In this document: in pieces, positions 4,042-41,138 of the stretch
Layout of the letters: the number at the start of each line of letters is the position of its first letter
Position numbering within the stretch: position 1 is the first letter of the stretch
From: an uncultured delta proteobacterium
GTDB lineage: Bacteria > Desulfobacterota > Binatia > UBA9968
Assembly (NCBI GenBank): GCA_963755715.1
Contig: CAVWLW010000042.1
Span: forward strand, 1-44,013
DNA length: 44,013 nucleotides
Reading direction: 5' to 3'
Notes under the pieces: model-generated
Told to the model about the DNA's origin: nothing
What the model saw: only the letters and a program-made list of their open reading frames with translations
The model's database searches: none
Made by a program: the position numbers and the translations under genes

Positions 4042-4116
4042 TGGCGCGCCCGACAGGAATCGAACCTGTACTTAGGGTTCCGGAGACCCTCGTGATATCC
4101 TTTTCACTACGGGCGC
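4042..4116 (-). tRNA. tRNA-Arg(CCG)
   Basis: Acceptor GCGCCCG/CGGGCGC, anticodon arm AGGGT-CTCCGGA-ACCCT, GGTTCGATTCC T-arm, encoded CCA. Confidence 0.95.
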
Positions 4117-6273: not shown

Positions 6274-6347
6274 TGGGCGGTCGCCAAGCGGTAAGGCCCC
6301 GGCCTTTGGAGCCGGTATCGAAGGTTCGAATCCTTCCCGCCCAGCCA
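6274..6347 (+). tRNA. tRNA-Gln(TTG)
   Basis: TGGGCGG/CCGCCCA acceptor, CCGGC-CTTTGGA-GCCGG anticodon arm, TTCGAAT T-loop, CCA; typical ispE-tRNA-Gln-prs context. Confidence 0.97.
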
Positions 6348-28855: not shown

Positions 28856-29806
28856 CTAATCAAGATAACCTTTCTCGCGAAAGTATTTCTTGGCTCCAGG
28901 ATGCAGCGGAATGGTCAACTGGCCGGCTTCGCCGCCGCGGCAGAATTCTGTCATTGTCATCGGCCGCTTGTCGAAATGATCGACGGGAATTTGCGCGTGG
29001 CAAAGATCGACGGCTTTGGCCATGTCGTAAGCGATCGATGACGGCAAGTCGGCATGGCAGAAAAAAGTCCAGCCGCTAAAATCGACGCAGCGAATTGCCT
29101 GCTCGAGCTTCGGATATTGTCCGCGTGTAAGCATGGCGGTAGGGAAGCCAAGTTTTTGCATGTGGCGCGCGGCGGCGTCGTTGATCGGCAAAAATCGCAT
29201 CCCTGAGTCGAGAGCGCGCTCGCCCCAGCTTTTGACGCCTTCGTCGAAGACGGCATCGGCACTGCCGGACGCGATATGATCTTTACGCTCTTTGCTACTC
29301 GGGGAAGACACCTCCATCACTTTGCCGCCCCAACGCTCGATGTCGCGGTAGCTCATGCCGTAGGCTTTGAGCACTTCTTCTATGGCGTAGGCCGTGGTTT
29401 GCAGTTTGTTGCGCCGGCGCGTCGAGACGCGCAGCGGATATTTTTGTTTTTTGACGTCGTCGAGCGAGTGGATGCCGGTCTCTTTGCGCACCGCGAAAAT
29501 AAGTCGATCCCAGGTCGGAAATACGCCGATGGCGCGGAGCGGAATTTTTTTCTTATAAAACCCGCGGCCAAGGTAAGCCATCGCCGAGAGACCTACCGGG
29601 TTGCCGAAGCCGAAGTCGCATTTCTTTTTGCCAACAAGAATTGCTGGGCCCGTGCCGCCGAGCTCGGAGTCGCGCCAGCCCATGCGCACGTCGAGCTCGG
29701 ATTGGCGCGGCAATTCGACATTGTTAAAAAAAGTCAGAGCGACGACGTTGGCGATGTCGACGCGCTTGGAGGTAGCGCCGATGGTGAGTTTAATGGGTTT
29801 GTCCAT
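28856..29806 (-). CDS. TAXI-family TRAP solute-receptor-like protein, no signal peptide
   Basis: LRAIGVFP, GIHSLDD, C-terminal IPLHPGAKKYFREKGYL. Confidence 0.85.
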   Translation of the reverse strand: MDKPIKLTIGATSKRVDIANVVALTFFNNVELPRQSELDVRMGWRDSELGGTGPAILVGKKKCDFGFGNPVGLSAMAYLGRGFYKKKIPLRAIGVFPTWDRLIFAVRKETGIHSLDDVKKQKYPLRVSTRRRNKLQTTAYAIEEVLKAYGMSYRDIERWGGKVMEVSSPSSKERKDHIASGSADAVFDEGVKSWGERALDSGMRFLPINDAAARHMQKLGFPTAMLTRGQYPKLEQAIRCVDFSGWTFFCHADLPSSIAYDMAKAVDLCHAQIPVDHFDKRPMTMTEFCRGGEAGQLTIPLHPGAKKYFREKGYLD

Positions 29807-34617: not shown

Positions 34618-34927
34618 GGTAAATCCCCGATAATTGAGAAGTGCTTACGTACCCGCGACCCTGCTTATCGCCGACCTCGAAATGCCCGAGTGGAGATCGA
34701 TCGTGCGGCACGCCGTAAAAACAACCCGCGCAGAGAAAGTGTCAGAGCATGTGTGTCGACTAATTTGCCTCTGATGGATACCGAGTGTTCCAAGCAGATA
34801 GCTTTAAAGCGGCTGTTTCTCATATTCACTTGCCAACAACTCATAATGGGCTAATTTATTCGGGCCGTAAGATTGAACTGAATTCTCCATCTACTAAATC
34901 CTGTGAGATTCGTCTGAAGCGTCGTTG

Positions 34928-36877
34928 ATCGACATAGGTAGGCTCTCGCGAGCTGTCCCTGTCACACCACCGGGCATACGGGTCACGTACCACGGCGGTT
35001 CGATCGGGTTAAGCATTTGAAGCGCCGGCTAATCTCGGAAGGCCGATCGAGTCGAAATAGCGATTGCGCAGTGCTTGTTGAACCGCCGGATGGCCTGACA
35101 TACGCCAGAGTCCCGTCGGTGAACCGGCGGCGACCGCAGCATTAAACTTCGGTACGCCGCGTCGATGCAGTTCTTTAAAACGGTTGTGTCCGTTCAGCCA
35201 CTGCCGCCAGAGGTACATCCGTAGTCTCCGGCGAATCCACGCATCCAGAGTCGACAGCACTTTAGGAGTTTGGCAAAAGCCAAAGTAGCCGCGCCAGCCA
35301 ATCAGATATCGAGCCAGGGGCTCGACCAGCGTGACCAGACTTACTCCAGACGTCCGACGTGTCAGTTCCCGTACCCGTAGCTTGAACCGTTGAACCGCCT
35401 TCGGCGCAATTTGCCGTTGGCGCCCATCGTTCGTGATACTAAAGCCCAGGAACTTTCGCTCCTCTGGTCGAGCCACAGCGCTCTTTGACTCGTTGACTTT
35501 CAGCCGAAGCCTAGTCGTCAGAAATCGGCTCACGCTGGCCATGACCCGCTCGCCCGCCCGCCGACTGCATACGTACACGTTACAGTCATCTGCGTAACGA
35601 CAGAATCGATGACCGCGGCGTTCCAGTTCCTTATCGAGTTCATCAAGCACCAGGTTACTTAACAGAGGAGAAACAGGACCCCCTTGCGGTGTCCCTTCAT
35701 CGATCGGACGGACCAACCCGTCTTCCATCACTCCAGCGTTTAAAAACGCTCGGATGATCTTGAGCACTCGCTTATCAGCCACCCGCTCCGCCACCCTTGC
35801 CATCAGCCTGTCATGGTTGACTCGATCGAAGAATTTCTCCAGGTCAATATCAACCACCCAGTTGTAGCCCTCAGCGATGTACGCTTGAGCTTGGGCTACC
35901 GCCTGATGCGCTGAGCGACCCGGGCGGAATCCATAGCTGTGCTCGGAAAACGTTGGGTCCCAACCTCTCTGCAGAACCTGAAGCAACGCTTGCTGAATCA
36001 GTCTATCGACGATGCAAGGAACGCCGAGCTTTCTGATCCCACCATCCGGCTTAGGAATTTCCACCCGCTTGACCGGTTGTGGCTTGTAAGTTCCGCTTAG
36101 CAGCTGTTCCCGAATCTCTAGCCAGTGCTCCCGCAGATAGAAAACGGCCTGCTCGATGGTCATCCCATCGACCCCCGCACTACCTTTGTTCTCCCGGACA
36201 CGCTTCCACGCTATTTCAAGATTTTCTCGTTGGCACACCTCCTCCATTAACCGTTCTTCCATTGCCAGGCTTTCAGAGTTTCGCTTCGCCACATGCGCTT
36301 CGGTCCCTTTGCGGACAAGGTTAGGGGTTTCACCCCAACCTCCTTCCGTGAAGGCCAGATGCAATTGCTTGCTCCGGATTTTCTGCCGCTTTGCGCTCAT
36401 GAGTTGCGAGTCCTACTTGCCACTCCCAATCGTTCAGGCCTTCAGCAAGTCGTTACCGGTCCGGCGAGCCCTGCCGTTTCTCCCCTTTCGGGCGAGTGTC
36501 CCAATCGAGTGGACCGACTGCCCTTGCCTACTTTGCCCTCTGCTGACTTCTGCGCCGCGGTCGGGTTGCCTCACGGCTTCCTCAGTTCCAATTTGGAACA
36601 CAGCGCAGATCTCCCGAGGTAAGCCCGACAGCTTTCACCGCACACCTGCCGGATCTACATCTCTGGCCCTTAATGGATATGGACTTCGCGACTAGTCGCA
36701 CGCTCGTCCGACCCGAGATGCCTGATATCCGGTTTCTGTTCGTCAGGTCGCGGCTTTGCTCCACGCTTCCTTCAGACGCCACCTCACGATGACGCCCTTG
36801 CGCTTTGCTAATCCTTCACCTCCATCAGGTTGGATAGGGGACTCTCACCCCTAAGCTGTCAAACATGCTCGGCACAC
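34928..36877 (-). mobile_element. Group II intron, class IIC
   Basis: 5' GTGTGCCGAGCATG...GGGGTGAGAGTCCCC; DV GAACCGCCGTGGTACGTGACCCGTATGCCCGGTGGTGT with CGC triad; ends ...CCTATGTCGAT; hairpin in 5' exon. Confidence 0.92.
35009..36400 (-). CDS. ltrA: Group II intron reverse transcriptase/maturase, no endonuclease domain
   Basis: NKGSAGVDG, RKLGVPCIVDRLIQQA, GTPQGG, RYADD, FLGF, domain X GWRGYF. Confidence 0.97.
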   Translation of the reverse strand: MSAKRQKIRSKQLHLAFTEGGWGETPNLVRKGTEAHVAKRNSESLAMEERLMEEVCQRENLEIAWKRVRENKGSAGVDGMTIEQAVFYLREHWLEIREQLLSGTYKPQPVKRVEIPKPDGGIRKLGVPCIVDRLIQQALLQVLQRGWDPTFSEHSYGFRPGRSAHQAVAQAQAYIAEGYNWVVDIDLEKFFDRVNHDRLMARVAERVADKRVLKIIRAFLNAGVMEDGLVRPIDEGTPQGGPVSPLLSNLVLDELDKELERRGHRFCRYADDCNVYVCSRRAGERVMASVSRFLTTRLRLKVNESKSAVARPEERKFLGFSITNDGRQRQIAPKAVQRFKLRVRELTRRTSGVSLVTLVEPLARYLIGWRGYFGFCQTPKVLSTLDAWIRRRLRMYLWRQWLNGHNRFKELHRRGVPKFNAAVAAGSPTGLWRMSGHPAVQQALRNRYFDSIGLPRLAGASNA

Positions 36878-37022
36878 GACTAAACCGCTTCGCGGTAGGC
36901 CGGAGGGCCGGAGTCCTGCGATTAGCGATCTTGCTGCTTTAATTTCGCAGTTATCATTTCTCTGACGTTGTGCCTGGGTGCAGTGATAGCCTCAGTGAAA
37001 ATTTTCACTCAAGGAGGCTGTC

Positions 37023-37869
37023 ATGGGAGCATTACGGGACCGAATGATCGAGGAGATGAAGCTGCGGAACTTTTCTGCTGCAACGCAAAAGACTTACCTC
37101 TACGCGGTGACGCGGCTGGCGAAATATTATGGCAAAGCGCCGGATCAGCTCAGTAAGGAAGATATCCGAGCGTTTCTTGTACATCTGCTGGTGGAGCGGA
37201 AGTTATCGCCCAATGGTCTGACCGGCTACTGTTCGGGGCTGCGCTTTTTCTATAACGAAACCCTAGGGTGGGACGAGAACAAGCTGTTCATTCCACCGCG
37301 GAGGAAATCTTCACCTGCTGGCTGAAGTGTTCAGTCCCGAGGAGGTCGTGCGCCTTATCCGCGCCGCCCGAGGTCTCAAGCAGCGTGTTTTATTGATGAG
37401 CGCCTATTCGGCAGGGCTCCGAGTCAGCGAGTTAGTCAATCTCAAGATCACCGACATCGATCCAGCACGCATGACGCTTCGTGTCAGGCAAGGTAAAGGC
37501 GGCAAAGACCGTTATGCCATTTTGTCGCAGAACCTGCTGGTGGAACTGCGTGTATATTGGAAACGCTACCGACCTGTGGTCTGGCTTTTCCCCAACCGAG
37601 CCAAGACCGGCCCCTTGAGTCGAGGAGAAGCTTGGCACATCTTCAACTCGGCGAAGAGAAGAGCGGGGCTTAAAAAAGGCCGTGGCATACACAGCCTACG
37701 GGCGTGCTTTGCCACCCATCTGTTGGAAGCCGGTGTAGACTTGCGCTCGATCCAGTTCTTAATGGGGCACACCTCGCTTCTATCCACCCAGCGCTACTTA
37801 AGGCTACGACCACAGAATGTTGACCGAGCCCTAAGTCCGCTCGACAGGCTGCCGTTAACGACGCTCTAA
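37023..37869 (+). CDS. Tyrosine recombinase with N-terminal SAM-like domain (frameshift ~37318)
   Basis: MKLRNFSAATQKTY; SAGLRVSE, GKGGKDR, HSLR, LMGH, TQRY catalytic residues. Confidence 0.92.
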
Positions 37870-37872
37870 GCC

Positions 37873-39068
37873 GTGGGCGGCGGCTCTGAGCAGCCGGCAG
37901 CGACAAAGGGCGGCGGCGTTGAACTGGCCGATATCTTTCGCGCCTATGGCGAGTCCTATCGCCGCAACCATCGGTTGCCGGTTTCCCATCTCAAAGTCAT
38001 CGAGGCCGTGGAGCGCTGTCGCACTGCGGCTCTCGGTGGGCATCTCCAACAGTGTGACTCCTGTGGCTTTGAGCGGCCGGCCTACAACTCCTGCCGCAAT
38101 CGGCACTGCCCTAAATGCCAATCTTTGGCCAAGGTAAAATGGCTCGACAAACAAAAATCAGAACTGTTGCCGAGCGGATATTTTCATCTAGTTTTTACCT
38201 TGCCCCACGAGCTCAACCCCCTGATCCTCATCAATAAGAAAGCCCTGATCCATATTTTGTTTCAATCGGTCTGGCAGACCTTAGCCCAATTTGCTCAGCG
38301 TCGTTTGGGCGGGATACTGGGGATCACTGCGGTTCTGCACACCTGGGATCAGACCCTGTTGGATCATTTTCATCTGCATTGTCTGGTTCCCGCCGGCGCT
38401 CTGTCTTTTGATCGAAACCGCTGGGTCTCAGCCCGTCAAGACTTTCTCTTCCCGGTTAAAGCCCTGAGCCTGGTCTTCCGCGCTAAGTTCCTCGACTCGC
38501 TCAAAAAGAGCTTCGATCAGAACAAGTTGCTCTTGCTCGGACACATCGCACACTTAGCCGATGCTCAAAGCTTTAACGTGTTGCTGAAAGGATTGCGAAA
38601 AAAACCGTGGGTCGTCTATGCCAAAAAACCGTTCGGCTCTGCCGCCCATGTGCTGGACTACCTCGGTCGTTACACCCACCGCGTGGCGCTCTCCAATGAT
38701 CGGATTGTTTCCAGCTCTAACGGAGAAGTCACCTTCGCTTACCGCGATCGAAAAAACCAAGATCGGCGCAAACTGATGACGCTCGATGCCCAGGAGTTCA
38801 TCCGCCGCTTTTTACTCCACGTCATCCCCAAAGGTTTCATGCGGGTGCGTCACTACGGCTTTTTAGCCAACCACTGCAAAGATGCTCTGTCGAAGTGTCG
38901 TCAACTCATAGGCCTCACGCCCGCACCGCCTCCATCTCCCCAACGCTCATCGAGGAGTTGATGCTGGCCTTGACCGGCATCGATATCCATCGCTGCCCGC
39001 TTTGCCAGAACGGAACTCTGGTGTGGGTTTGCGAACTGGCAGTGTCCCTGCCGTGGGATTCTTCGTGA
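37873..39068 (+). CDS. IS91-family (HUH Y2) transposase with Zn-binding domain (frameshift ~38948)
   Basis: CRTAALGG, SCRNRHCPKC, HTW...HLH, YLGRY, RVRHYG; shifted tail TGIDIHRCPLCQNG...WDSS*. Confidence 0.93.
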
Positions 39069-39323
39069 GAACGGATCTCATCAATCAATGCGACGGTCTT
39101 TCCCCTGCTCTCTGCCAGAGCCAACGCAGAGCTGTGTCTGGTGGTATCATTTTGCCATGCTTTTAGCCCATGCTCACGTGGTATTTGTGCTGTCTGGATC
39201 TTGCCGAAACCAATTTCTCGTAATGCGCCCCGATCCTCCGCGATCCCCCGCAAAATGGTAGCTCGCCGCGATGTTGCCGTTCCAATCCCCATAGGCAACG
39301 CTTCTGCCTCTCCCAACGCTTTA

Positions 39324-39414
39324 GTCCAACGGGTTTTAACCCGAATGCGTCCAATCCAACTGTTCTCACCGATCGTTCTGCCCTCGCATTCGGGTTAAAA
39401 CCTATCCGTTGGAC
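39324..39414 (+). other. attC-like terminal hairpin of the IS91-like element
   Basis: GTCCAAC (RYYYAAC) ... GTTGGAC (GTTRRRY) with perfect inner stem GGTTTTAACCCGAATGCG/CGCATTCGGGTTAAAACC. Confidence 0.7.
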
Positions 39415-39425
39415 GTTTCGTGCTG

Positions 39426-39541
39426 GTATATTGAATATACGAGACCAGGTATATTGGATATACCGGCGACATGAACAAATTGACAACCCTTTGATTTCAG
39501 GGGTAAGTTGCGCATTGATTATTGGTGGATACCCAATATAC
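39426..39541 (+). promoter_or_regulatory. Promoter TTGACA-18-TAAGTT flanked by three 15-bp palindromic motifs
   Basis: GTATATTGAATATAC 39426, GTATATTGGATATAC 39449, reverse-strand GTATATTGGGTATCC 39527; TTGACA at 39480. Confidence 0.55.
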
Positions 39542-39591
39542 GAGATCTGTTCACTCAATAGTTCGGCTTCAAACCAAGGGTCTTCATACAA

Positions 39592-40365
39592 ATGAGCGGA
39601 AAAAACTGGCGCGAGTGGTTCCTTGGCGTAGTAACAGTGGGGGGAATCGCTACGACATTTTGGTTGTCGCCGCTCCCCCAAGATCCGACCTATCATGAGT
39701 TCGCGGACCGCAGAACATTCTTCGGAACCCCAAACTTCTGGAACGTGTTCTCCAATCTCCCGTTCGTGCTTGTCGGAGCTTTTGGACTGCGCACGCTATC
39801 GCGGCTGCCACCATCCTCGCCCCGCTCTGCATACGTCGTGTTCTGTATCGGGGTGGTTTTGGTCGGCTTCGGTTCGGCTTATTATCACTATTCTCCCTCA
39901 ACGCCGGCGCTGGTTTGGGATCGGGTACCTATGACGATTGCCTTCATGGCGCTCTTCTCGATGGTTGTCCGCGACCGCCTGTCGGAACAAGGCGGCAGTG
40001 TCATGCTGTGGCCGTTGGTCCTGGCGGGAGTGGCCTCGGTCGGGTACTGGTACTGGTCCGAGACCCAAGGGCAAGGAGACCTCAGGGCGTACGGGGTTAT
40101 ACAGTTTCTGCCGATGCTCCTGATAGCGTTGATGCTCATAATCTGTAGCGGCAAAGGCCTGAGCGCTCCATGGCTGTGGGGTTCATTGGGGACCTACGCC
40201 TTGGCCAAAGTGGCGGAGCACTTCGACAAAGCCATTTACAACGTGACAGGTATCGTGAGTGGACACAGCATCAAGCACGTCTTAGGGGCTCTTGCGGTTC
40301 TCTGGGCTGTCTTTGCGGCTCTAGGGTTTAGCCGACGACAAAGCCGAACAACCCAGTGGAGCTGA
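39592..40365 (+). CDS. Ceramidase-like (CREST superfamily) membrane protein
   Basis: YHEFADRR, NVFSNLPF, GSAYYH, WDRVPM, SGHSIKH; about 7 TM. Confidence 0.85.
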   Translation: MSGKNWREWFLGVVTVGGIATTFWLSPLPQDPTYHEFADRRTFFGTPNFWNVFSNLPFVLVGAFGLRTLSRLPPSSPRSAYVVFCIGVVLVGFGSAYYHYSPSTPALVWDRVPMTIAFMALFSMVVRDRLSEQGGSVMLWPLVLAGVASVGYWYWSETQGQGDLRAYGVIQFLPMLLIALMLIICSGKGLSAPWLWGSLGTYALAKVAEHFDKAIYNVTGIVSGHSIKHVLGALAVLWAVFAALGFSRRQSRTTQWS

Positions 40366-40652: not shown

Positions 40653-41138
40653 ATGGTGAAGCCAGCAAAGAACACGATTTGCCTTTGGTACGATGGCGAC
40701 GCCGAGGACGCGGCGCGGTTTTACGCCAAGACCTTTCCCGATTCATCCGTCGGCGCGGTGCACCGCGCACCGGGAGACTTTCCGTCCGGGAAGAAAGGGG
40801 ATGTGTTGACGGTCGAGTTTACCGTGATGGGAATTCCCTGCCTCGGGCTCAATGGCGGACCCGCGTTCAAGCACAACGAAGCATTCTCGTTTCAGGTCGC
40901 AACCGCTGACCAGGCCGAAACGGATCGTTACTGGAACGCGATCGTCGGCAACGGCGGCGAAGAGAGTGCGTGCGGCTGGTGCAAGGACAAATGGGGATTG
41001 TCCTGGCAGATTACGCCGATCGCTCTGACGAAAGCGATCACCGATCCCGATCCCGCTGCCGCCAAGCGCGCGTTCGATGCGATGATGCAGATGAAAAAGA
41101 TCGACATCGCTGCAATCGAGGCGGCGCGCCGCGGTTGA
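40653..41138 (+). CDS. VOC family protein (PhnB / 3-demethylubiquinone-9 methyltransferase-like)
   Basis: CLWYD, LNGGP, CGWCKDKWGLSWQI, MKKIDIA. Confidence 0.93.
   Translation: MVKPAKNTICLWYDGDAEDAARFYAKTFPDSSVGAVHRAPGDFPSGKKGDVLTVEFTVMGIPCLGLNGGPAFKHNEAFSFQVATADQAETDRYWNAIVGNGGEESACGWCKDKWGLSWQITPIALTKAITDPDPAAAKRAFDAMMQMKKIDIAAIEAARRG

Follow-up and report, generated by a model that had tools for sequence, protein, structure and literature searches.

A group IIC intron at the left tip of an IS91-family element with a tyrosine recombinase gene, and signs that its lineage homes to this site

Here we describe a group IIC intron and the IS91-family insertion sequence (IS) that hosts it in an uncultured delta proteobacterium (GTDB lineage Bacteria; Desulfobacterota; Binatia; UBA9968; assembly GCA_963755715.1). 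Both lie on contig CAVWLW010000042.1, of which positions 1 to 44,013 of the forward strand were analysed as one 44,013-nucleotide stretch, hereafter the window. The intron lies within the IS, a single base from its left tip and antisense to its genes, such that the bottom strand reads ...ACCGCGAAGCGGT-TTAGTC^C (the caret marking the insertion point) and then continues into the flank. We think it probable that this class C intron retrohomed into a left tip resembling the terIS end of IS91, that it belongs to a lineage specialised on such sites, and that its ribonucleoprotein (RNP) reads a small DNA hairpin, the intron-binding site IBS1 and the tip base of the element. The features on which this reading draws are the following.

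34871 to 34926, plus strand: flank, belonging to a short repeat GATTGAACTGAATTCTCC...GAAGCGTCGTT (its left part) into which the IS usually inserts, with further copies in the genome
34927, minus strand: IBS3 (C), with which the left tip of the IS ends (the plus strand has G here); this G precedes GACTAAACC in 57 of 57 intronless relatives, and the bases farther out vary
34928 to 36877, minus strand: group IIC intron of 1950 nt, its ends set by an intronless paralog; Rfam RF02001 at 141 bits
35009 to 36400, minus strand: intron-encoded reverse transcriptase (RT)/maturase of class C, intact, 463 amino acids; Pfam RVT_1 and GIIM only, TIGR04416 at 428 bits
36623 to 36793, minus strand: ribozyme core, domains 1 to 4; full-length match to Rfam group-II-D1D4-3 (model positions 1-170, 141 bits)
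36655, minus strand: exon-binding site EBS3 (G, intron position 223), pairing with 3'-exon base +1 (C); the column of highest mutual information with the +1 base
36693 to 36697, minus strand: EBS1 (GACUA), pairing with IBS1 (UAGUC); a terminal loop in the Rfam alignment, with exon covariation
36878 to 36882, minus strand: IBS1 (TAGTC), pairing with EBS1
36884 to 36896, minus strand: mini-hairpin of the 5' exon, ACCGC-GAA-GCGGT, which forms the subterminal palindrome at the left end of the IS; stem kept, with compensatory changes, in 43 of 44 sites
37023 to 37869, plus strand: tyrosine recombinase gene (Phage_int_SAM_4 and Phage_integrase), split by a frameshift into 37023-37325 and 37327-37869
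37873 to 39068, plus strand: IS91-family Y2 transposase gene (Zn_Tnp_IS91 and Y2_Tnp), with a frame break near 38961 and its C-terminal piece in another frame
39317 to 39331, plus strand: right subterminal motif copy CGCTTTAGTCCAACG, inverted relative to the left tip and predicted to pair with it across head-to-tail junctions
39320 to 39410, plus strand: long hairpin of the right, oriIS-like end; the right tip of the IS, ...CCTATCCGTT, ends at 39410

The boundaries of the intron are confirmed because an intronless paralog in the same genome equals its joined flanks. The genome holds two further recombinase-transposase copies, one on contig C1 that is 5'-truncated and 97% identical, the other, on contig C54, full and 78% identical. 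This second copy is intronless and reads ...GAAGCGTCGTTG/GACTAAACCGCTTCGCGGT... (in shorter form ...GCGTCGTTG/GACTAAACCGCTTCGCGGT...), exactly the window flanks 34927 and 36878 joined. Empty sites also occur in soil or rhizosphere metagenomes, where a contig of run X4 joins approximately 34902 to 36878 with ...GCGTCGTTG in between and run X1 contains a loose end AGCGTCGTTG ahead of 36878, as well as at every evaluable left end (57 of 57) in close relatives of the IS on metagenome contigs. The empty allele is thus found in the C54 paralog, at the metagenome left ends and in contigs of X4, and the boundaries given in a preliminary description of this DNA, which was made from the letters alone, hold, with the motif restored in the paralog and at all 57 empty ends. 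Fourteen metagenome runs contained at least half of the words sampled from the stretch; shares of 0.80-0.86 lie near the intron's own share of it. Within its host assembly (G000, 76 contigs) the intron is present once by blastn, and on the minus strand it begins with GTGTGCC at 36877 and ends with ...GTCGAT at 34928.

The intron-encoded protein consists of RT and maturase (X) domains without an endonuclease domain, the arrangement of class C. Its best solved relatives are the GsI-IIC RT (6ar1, 490 bits) and the E.r. IIC maturase (7uim, 354 bits), with two IIC RT-domain crystal structures at 294 and 290 bits, whereas solved proteins from outside IIC score lower (LtrA of IIA 130 bits, a IIB maturase 128 bits). 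Judged by these comparisons, the RT belongs to class C.

The preliminary description had noted a 14/15 match between the joined exons and 39317-39331, and this match is real: it cannot be put down to chance because its 12-mer core, TTTAGTCCAACG, occurs only four times in the 7.4-Mb genome, each time at an end of this element family (C42 right, C1 right, C54 left and C54 right, C42 being the window contig). The intron was there taken to lie in a separate copy of the terminal motif of a neighbouring element; the motif stands, but the site is the left tip of the element itself, whose right end bears the inverted copy. The proposal that the intron homes to the ends of rolling-circle elements is supported, though for the left, terIS-like end and not for both, and for the real end rather than a copy of it.

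Comparison with related introns ties this kind of site to IS91-type genes. The best 80 of more than 509 genome loci with RT relatives (59-82% amino-acid identity) were taken together with ten loci from relatives of the host genome, and intron ends were mapped by blastn with the first 140 and last 110 bases of the window intron. We call class A a site of the form (N)CCGC-G(N1-2)A-GCGG(N') followed by TT(A/C)GT(C/T), the intron and C, and class T a classic GC hairpin with a T-run. Where at least 600 nt of upstream sequence was available, a recombinase and/or Y2 transposase gene lies just upstream, on the opposite strand, at 33 of 41 class A loci (40 without the window itself), compared with 0 of 18 class T introns (one of which, L083, comes from genome G005) and 0 of 8 introns at other sites. 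The expectation that homologous introns would be associated with IS91-type genes is thereby borne out. The recombinase start lies 97-170 nt from the intron in the 30 class A loci in which the N-terminal part was found. Going by record titles, 27 assemblies supply the 33 linked loci; they represent Alpha-, Beta- and Gammaproteobacteria as well as Acidobacteriota, including Mesorhizobium, Bradyrhizobium and other Alphaproteobacteria, a Betaproteobacterium, an Ectothiorhodospiraceae metagenome-assembled genome, Vicinamibacterales, Bryobacteraceae and Acidobacteriaceae; one of the introns, L008, resides on a Mesorhizobium plasmid. About nine full elements carry an inverted copy of the site at their opposite end, 2390-2590 nt upstream. 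At two class A loci without IS genes (L014 and L069) such a copy stands 302 and 223 nt upstream; these loci are probably miniature forms of the IS, devoid of genes yet still a target of the intron.

Exon recognition at these sites follows the pattern of IIC introns, with a short EBS1-IBS1 pairing, a single EBS3-IBS3 pair and insertion just 3' of a DNA stem-loop. In the window EBS1 (GACUA) pairs with UAGUC and EBS3 (G) with C, which supplies the mapping that the preliminary description had left to be made. The first three EBS1/IBS1 positions pair in 69 of 75 relatives (mean 25.5 and maximum 35 over 1000 shuffles of the exons), with combinations as different as GACU with AGTC, AACG with CGTT and AUA with TAT, while EBS3 and IBS3 form a Watson-Crick pair in 57 of 62 cases (46 G:C and 11 A:T). 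The mini-hairpin already noticed in the 5' exon is present as ACCGC-GAA-GCGGT, 6 nt from the splice site. Among 44 class A sites the stem is kept in 43, a G..A loop in 40 and the 6-nt spacer in 39; the outer stem pair varies in a compensatory manner (A-T, G-C, C-G), and the inner pair is swapped from C-G to G-C in L023-25. Mini-hairpins of the d(GCGAAGC) or GNA type are unusually stable. According to a study of the E.r. IIC intron (PMC10190682), EBS1 occupies positions 184-188 and EBS3 is A231 in the coordination loop, to which the window positions correspond, and in the cryoEM structure the RNP holds a DNA stem-loop, a spacer, a 4-5-bp IBS1 and IBS3.

Several of the related introns depart from the simple arrangement. 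At one class A site beside an IS (L022:3521-7398) two complete introns lie in tandem, head to tail, the second beginning immediately after the final base of the first (...CCCTATCCCGAT followed by GTGTGCC). The introns of L013 (1929-5473) and L028 (3527-6229) measure 3.5 and 2.7 kb and must hold something inserted within them; the longest open reading frame (ORF) of L013 is not an RT. In L082 (G015:C9:503232-505193), an intron of a related genome that is 92% identical to that of the window, the RT frame is broken into pieces across all three frames.

The host element has the hallmarks of the IS91 family. Its transposase scores 424 bits against NCBIfam transpos_IS91 (NF033538, cut-off 125) and is a HUH Y2 transposase with an N-terminal zinc-binding domain, the family's defining architecture, albeit frameshifted near 38961 in the window copy. 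The two ends differ and carry subterminal palindromes, a mini-hairpin on the left and a long hairpin on the right, and there is no target-site duplication, again as the family is defined. Members of IS91 with an upstream integrase appear in ISfinder. Both IS genes are frameshifted in the window (37300-37330 and about 38955-39068), reflecting either decay of this copy or assembly error; the tyrosine recombinase is one frame in relatives, and related metagenome contigs have one base fewer at 37318, where their integrase frame is continuous.

The ends of the element were delimited on 80 metagenome contigs with close transposase relatives (72-97% amino-acid identity). Left ends could be read in 57; of the other 23, 10 had no N-terminal part of the integrase, 4 were of insufficient length, 3 broke off no more than 3 nt from the site, and 6 were discarded as pattern artefacts at wrong places (L140, L148, L155, L159, L168 and L201), a stricter pattern also giving 57. 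The flank letters at the 57 left ends are CGTTG in 34 cases, AATTG in 10 and others in 13. After the right tip ...CCTATCCGTT, 24 of 28 metagenome relatives continue with CAGTTC or CAATTC, the register of this flank being ambiguous by up to 4 nt, so that a GTTC target reading fits some sites and not all. At 27 metagenome loci both flanks were read, one of these being a head-to-tail junction; the left is mostly ...CGTT before the tip G and the right mostly CAGTTC or CAATTC, with no direct repeat. On these alignments the IS is GGACTAAACC...CCGTT, which in the window corresponds to 34927 followed by 36878-39410; its insertions fall at TT^CAGTTCAATCC, where a short repeat has its inner edge, and cause no duplication. 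As read from the genome sequence, this repeat family is bounded by GGATTGAAYTG...CAGTTCAATCC, has at least 10 matches in the genome and receives the IS at TT^CAGTTCAATCC on either arm (locations include C54 at about 41007-41065, C11 at 28874-29132 and the window at 34871-34926). A 75-bp repeat to the left of the intron was considered as part of the IS and rejected: IS-free copies exist (C54, about 41007-41065), and the flanks vary past the tip G. At the right end of the window element (39406-39414), the flank begins with GGAC and lacks the usual CAGTTCAATCC; it looks like a junction remnant, though four bases could agree by chance.

Head-to-tail junctions of the form CCGTT/GGACTAAACC were found on two metagenome contigs, L178 (130-160) and L181 (right end), and are the only hint here of the single-stranded circle of rolling-circle transposition. 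The bottom strand of the L178 junction is predicted to fold into a long hairpin (-40.1 kcal/mol, z -7.7, equalled in 0 of 200 shuffles) in which TTTAGTCCAACGG pairs with CCGTTGGACTAAA. In this folding model the motif at 39317-39331 is an arm that pairs with the right tip (CCGTT) and, once the ends join, also with the left tip (GGACTAAA), and it may serve to align both ends for strand joining.

Could this be a standard IIC insertion that followed a terminator-like hairpin located in an IS by coincidence, the motif match being incidental? IIC introns do use many hairpins, and close relatives of this one occur behind terminators. We nevertheless give this explanation hardly any credence: the hairpin has no T-run, with only three T after the stem, and a terminator scan at the site returned no terminator-like call; 44 sites share this hairpin, spacer and IBS1, and among the 41 with sufficient sequence upstream, 33 have IS genes next to them; and in the host genome the 12-mer is confined to IS ends. 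An attC-type target, in which an integron-like integrase would act on the hairpin as a folded recombination site and the intron would be a member or analogue of the IIC-attC group, draws on the SAM_4 N-terminal domain of the recombinase, its weak matches to integron-integrase models and the precedent of IIC-attC introns at recombinase hairpin sites. It is still very unlikely in our view. The integron-integrase models give 34 and 110 bits against a cut-off of 265, the recombinase gene always accompanies an IS91 transposase (with identities of the two proteins correlated at 0.88), the site lies at an IS tip and not between cassettes, and no cassette array was seen in the ORF list of the window. 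The earlier suggestion of a target distinct from both terminators and attC therefore agrees with the absence of a terminator-like call and with integron-integrase scores below cut-off.

A more substantial alternative is that a composite element carries the intron as a fixed passenger or module, so that its link with the IS would reflect common descent from one old insertion carried along by IS transposition. The location of the intron one base inside the IS allows for this, near-identical copies of IS plus intron stand in differing flanks (5 of 6 sampled loci in genome G041 and 4 of 6 in G043), and three within-genome pairs combine 100% identical RTs with Y2 transposases 94-99% identical. The intron and the IS do not, however, diverge together. 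Over 17 loci with all three proteins, pairwise identities correlate at a Spearman coefficient of 0.15 between RT and Y2, a value we take qualitatively as the pairs are not independent, compared with 0.88 between Y2 and integrase; discordant pairs run in both directions (RT 94% and Y2 65% for L008/L016, RT 62% and Y2 78% for L067/L021), and in genome G015 the intron is 92.4% identical over its full length in a host IS that is 64% identical. On these identities, the histories of intron and IS are independent. Moreover, no intron was present at any of the 57 left ends read in close IS relatives (0/57), a figure that may partly be an effect of assembly, as three contigs stop within 3 nt of the site.

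Occupancy within genomes also speaks to this question. Six integrase loci were sampled in each of five genomes with class A introns, 9 of the 30 left ends being read by eye. G041 had five occupied ends and one empty end with a deviant IBS1, and G043 four occupied ends and two with an altered tip. In G042 two ends of TTCGTT type were occupied, in accordance with an intron EBS1 of AACG, and four of TTAGTC type were empty. In G044 none of six was occupied, five being of TTCGTT type in a genome whose resident introns read AGTC, and one matching end was empty; in G045 none of six was occupied either, and five have TTTAGTC without a hairpin. Occupied ends thus fit the EBS1 of the resident intron, while ends with another IBS1 and the five hairpin-less ends are empty, and this tracking of the EBS1 match runs against the view of the intron as a passenger. 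The hairpin-less ends of G045 (L100, L104, L109, L114 and L119) belong to an IS subtype with the left tip (A/C)TTGGACTAAACC and no mini-hairpin, intron-free in a genome that has class A introns elsewhere. Taken together, the pattern fits homing rather than co-inheritance, which we favour because intron and IS do not co-diverge and none of the 57 close relatives is occupied; common descent as a passenger seems improbable to us.

The RT tree bears on how far one may speak of a specialised lineage. It comprises 71 RTs and comes from a quick maximum-likelihood search under LG+G4, without bootstrap or outgroup and rooted at the midpoint; L013 entered with a wrong ORF (branch length 5.5, its intron holding an insertion), L082 is absent owing to its broken RT frame, and L022_1, L062, L083, L086, L087 and L089 were left out beforehand. 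The class A label changes 6 times on the tree compared with 22.6 times when labels are shuffled, and two starred clades are made up of class A in 24 of 26 and 17 of 18 rows.

A set of observations weighs against the preferred reading of homing by a specialised lineage. The two class A clades are not sisters on this quick, midpoint-rooted tree, which would mean either two origins or reversions. Eight of the 41 class A loci have no IS genes upstream, and, while two of them resemble miniature derivatives, Pfam gives unrelated genes in the other six. The stem is 5 bp here compared with about 12 bp in the IIC targets described in PMC10190682, and the 5' exon alone folds no better than its shuffles (z -1.5). 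The host assembly contains a single copy of the intron, and RNA contigs of run X15 span parts of it, differing at 0-1 positions, and contain no exon-exon joint; DNA carry-over being possible, they are no evidence of expression. Apart from these points, a promoter scan of 34700-39600 on both strands found no sigma-70-like site.

How the RNP would meet this site can be sketched from what is described for IS91. A 2026 study of IS91 (PMC13181058) places terIS at the left, ahead of the genes, where a lone subterminal palindrome adjoins the cleavage site, and oriIS at the right; as we read it, insertion is confined to the single-stranded circle made from the bottom strand. Our element is laid out in the same way, and the intron targets its bottom strand, on which 7 nt separate the mini-hairpin from the 3' tip. 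Under the proposed mechanism, the RNP would read the conserved 5-bp mini-hairpin with its GNA or GNNA loop, which is the subterminal palindrome of the IS, presumably recognising it as other IIC introns do, and would pair EBS1 with 3-6 bases of IBS1 and EBS3 with the tip base. By analogy, the RNP would most likely encounter a single-stranded site, which could exist at a replication fork or, before closure, on the displaced strand; we infer such an attack because the target strand is the one that is displaced and circularised in IS91 and because of the known habits of IIC introns. A transposition intermediate as the form attacked comes close to an even chance in our estimate, and a hairpin extruded at a replication fork is a serious prospect at somewhat less than even. 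The closed single-stranded circle was also considered and is less likely to be the form attacked, as the IBS1 bases are predicted to be buried by pairing in the long hairpin of the closed head-to-tail junction.

With the intron inserted, 1.95 kb would separate the end from the palindrome and from seven of the eight tip bases, and poor termination is therefore to be expected for that copy, so that the intron should impair either termination or circle closure of the IS it occupies. Going further, one may tentatively picture a widespread IIC lineage that parasitises rolling-circle transposons: it would reverse-splice into the single-stranded bottom strand, displaced or not yet closed, at the terIS mini-hairpin one base from the 3' tip, sever the tip from its right subterminal 'splint' partner and so block termination or closure. 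We hold this wider scenario to be possible, at odds well below even. If true, it would add a fourth class to the natural targets of group II introns and be a case in which a retroelement regulates a DNA transposon.

The remainder of the window adds two observations outside these subjects. Between the right end of the IS and a ceramidase-family gene (39592-40365), an imperfect repeat GGTATATTGAATATACG...GGTATATTGGATATACC occupies 39420-39470, directly beside the IS, and the Rfam scan gave two tRNA genes, at 4045-4116 on the minus strand and 6274-6344 on the plus strand.

Our results are of clear interest for those who study group II introns and HUH transposons. Should the link of the lineage to the site hold, it would represent a further structured-DNA target for group II introns, used by a sublineage spread across several phyla; it would also be a natural case of a very small hairpin (5 bp, GNA loop) accepted by a IIC RNP, and would tie intron mobility to a second system of folded single-stranded DNA besides integrons. 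The analysis additionally defines the ends, the target and the cross-junction pairing of a poorly described IS91 subgroup with a tyrosine recombinase, and offers a compact, sequence-defined target for mobility assays. A 2015 review recognises three specificities among bacterial group II introns, namely long homing sites, terminators and attC, and class C introns showed no bias in their neighbourhoods in a 2020 survey. In open-access papers and preprints we found no report linking class C introns to IS91, ISCR or terIS ends, and IS911 and IS91 came up there in other contexts only; an earlier mention elsewhere is possible.

Among known systems, the closest in machinery are the terminator-targeting IIC introns (B.h.I1, GsI-IIC and E.r. 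IIC), which share a class C RT without endonuclease, a short EBS1/IBS1 and single-base EBS3/IBS3 pairing at comparable ribozyme positions, and an insertion point lying a few bases beyond a DNA stem-loop, on its 3' side; terminators are still used by sister lineages of the present intron. In contrast to them, the target here is one conserved sequence family with a 5-bp stem, a GNA or GNNA loop, no T-run and TT(A/C)GT(C/T)^C, placed at the tip of a mobile element and antisense to its genes. The IIC-attC introns (S.ma.I2) are alike, according to the 2015 review, in being a IIC sublineage on a folded recombination site, active as a single strand, of another mobile system and next to a tyrosine recombinase gene, but here the host is an IS91-family rolling-circle element, the recombinase falls below integron-integrase cut-offs and the site is the terminal palindrome of the IS. 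RmInt1 (in ISRm2011-2) and E.c.I4 (in IS3-family genes) also have a natural homing site within an insertion sequence; these are IIB-type introns that use a long sense-strand sequence in a coding region, whereas the intron studied here uses structure plus about six bases at a non-coding tip, in antisense orientation.

With IS91, IS801 and IS1294, in turn, the host element shares a Y2 transposase, dissimilar ends (one left palindrome near the tip and a long right palindrome) and the lack of target duplication, and the final bases of the preferred target (CGTT) equal the right tip of the IS itself, as they do in that family. It differs in its extra upstream tyrosine recombinase gene, in a longer specific site, TT^CAGTTCAATCC, compared with the bare CTTG or GTTC of that family, and in a left tip complementary to the right subterminal motif. 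Overall, the sequence comparisons point to an intron that works like other IIC introns, with the IIC features tested all present, and whose target at the end of an IS91-family element, apparently not yet described for IIC introns, extends their known habit of inserting after hairpins.

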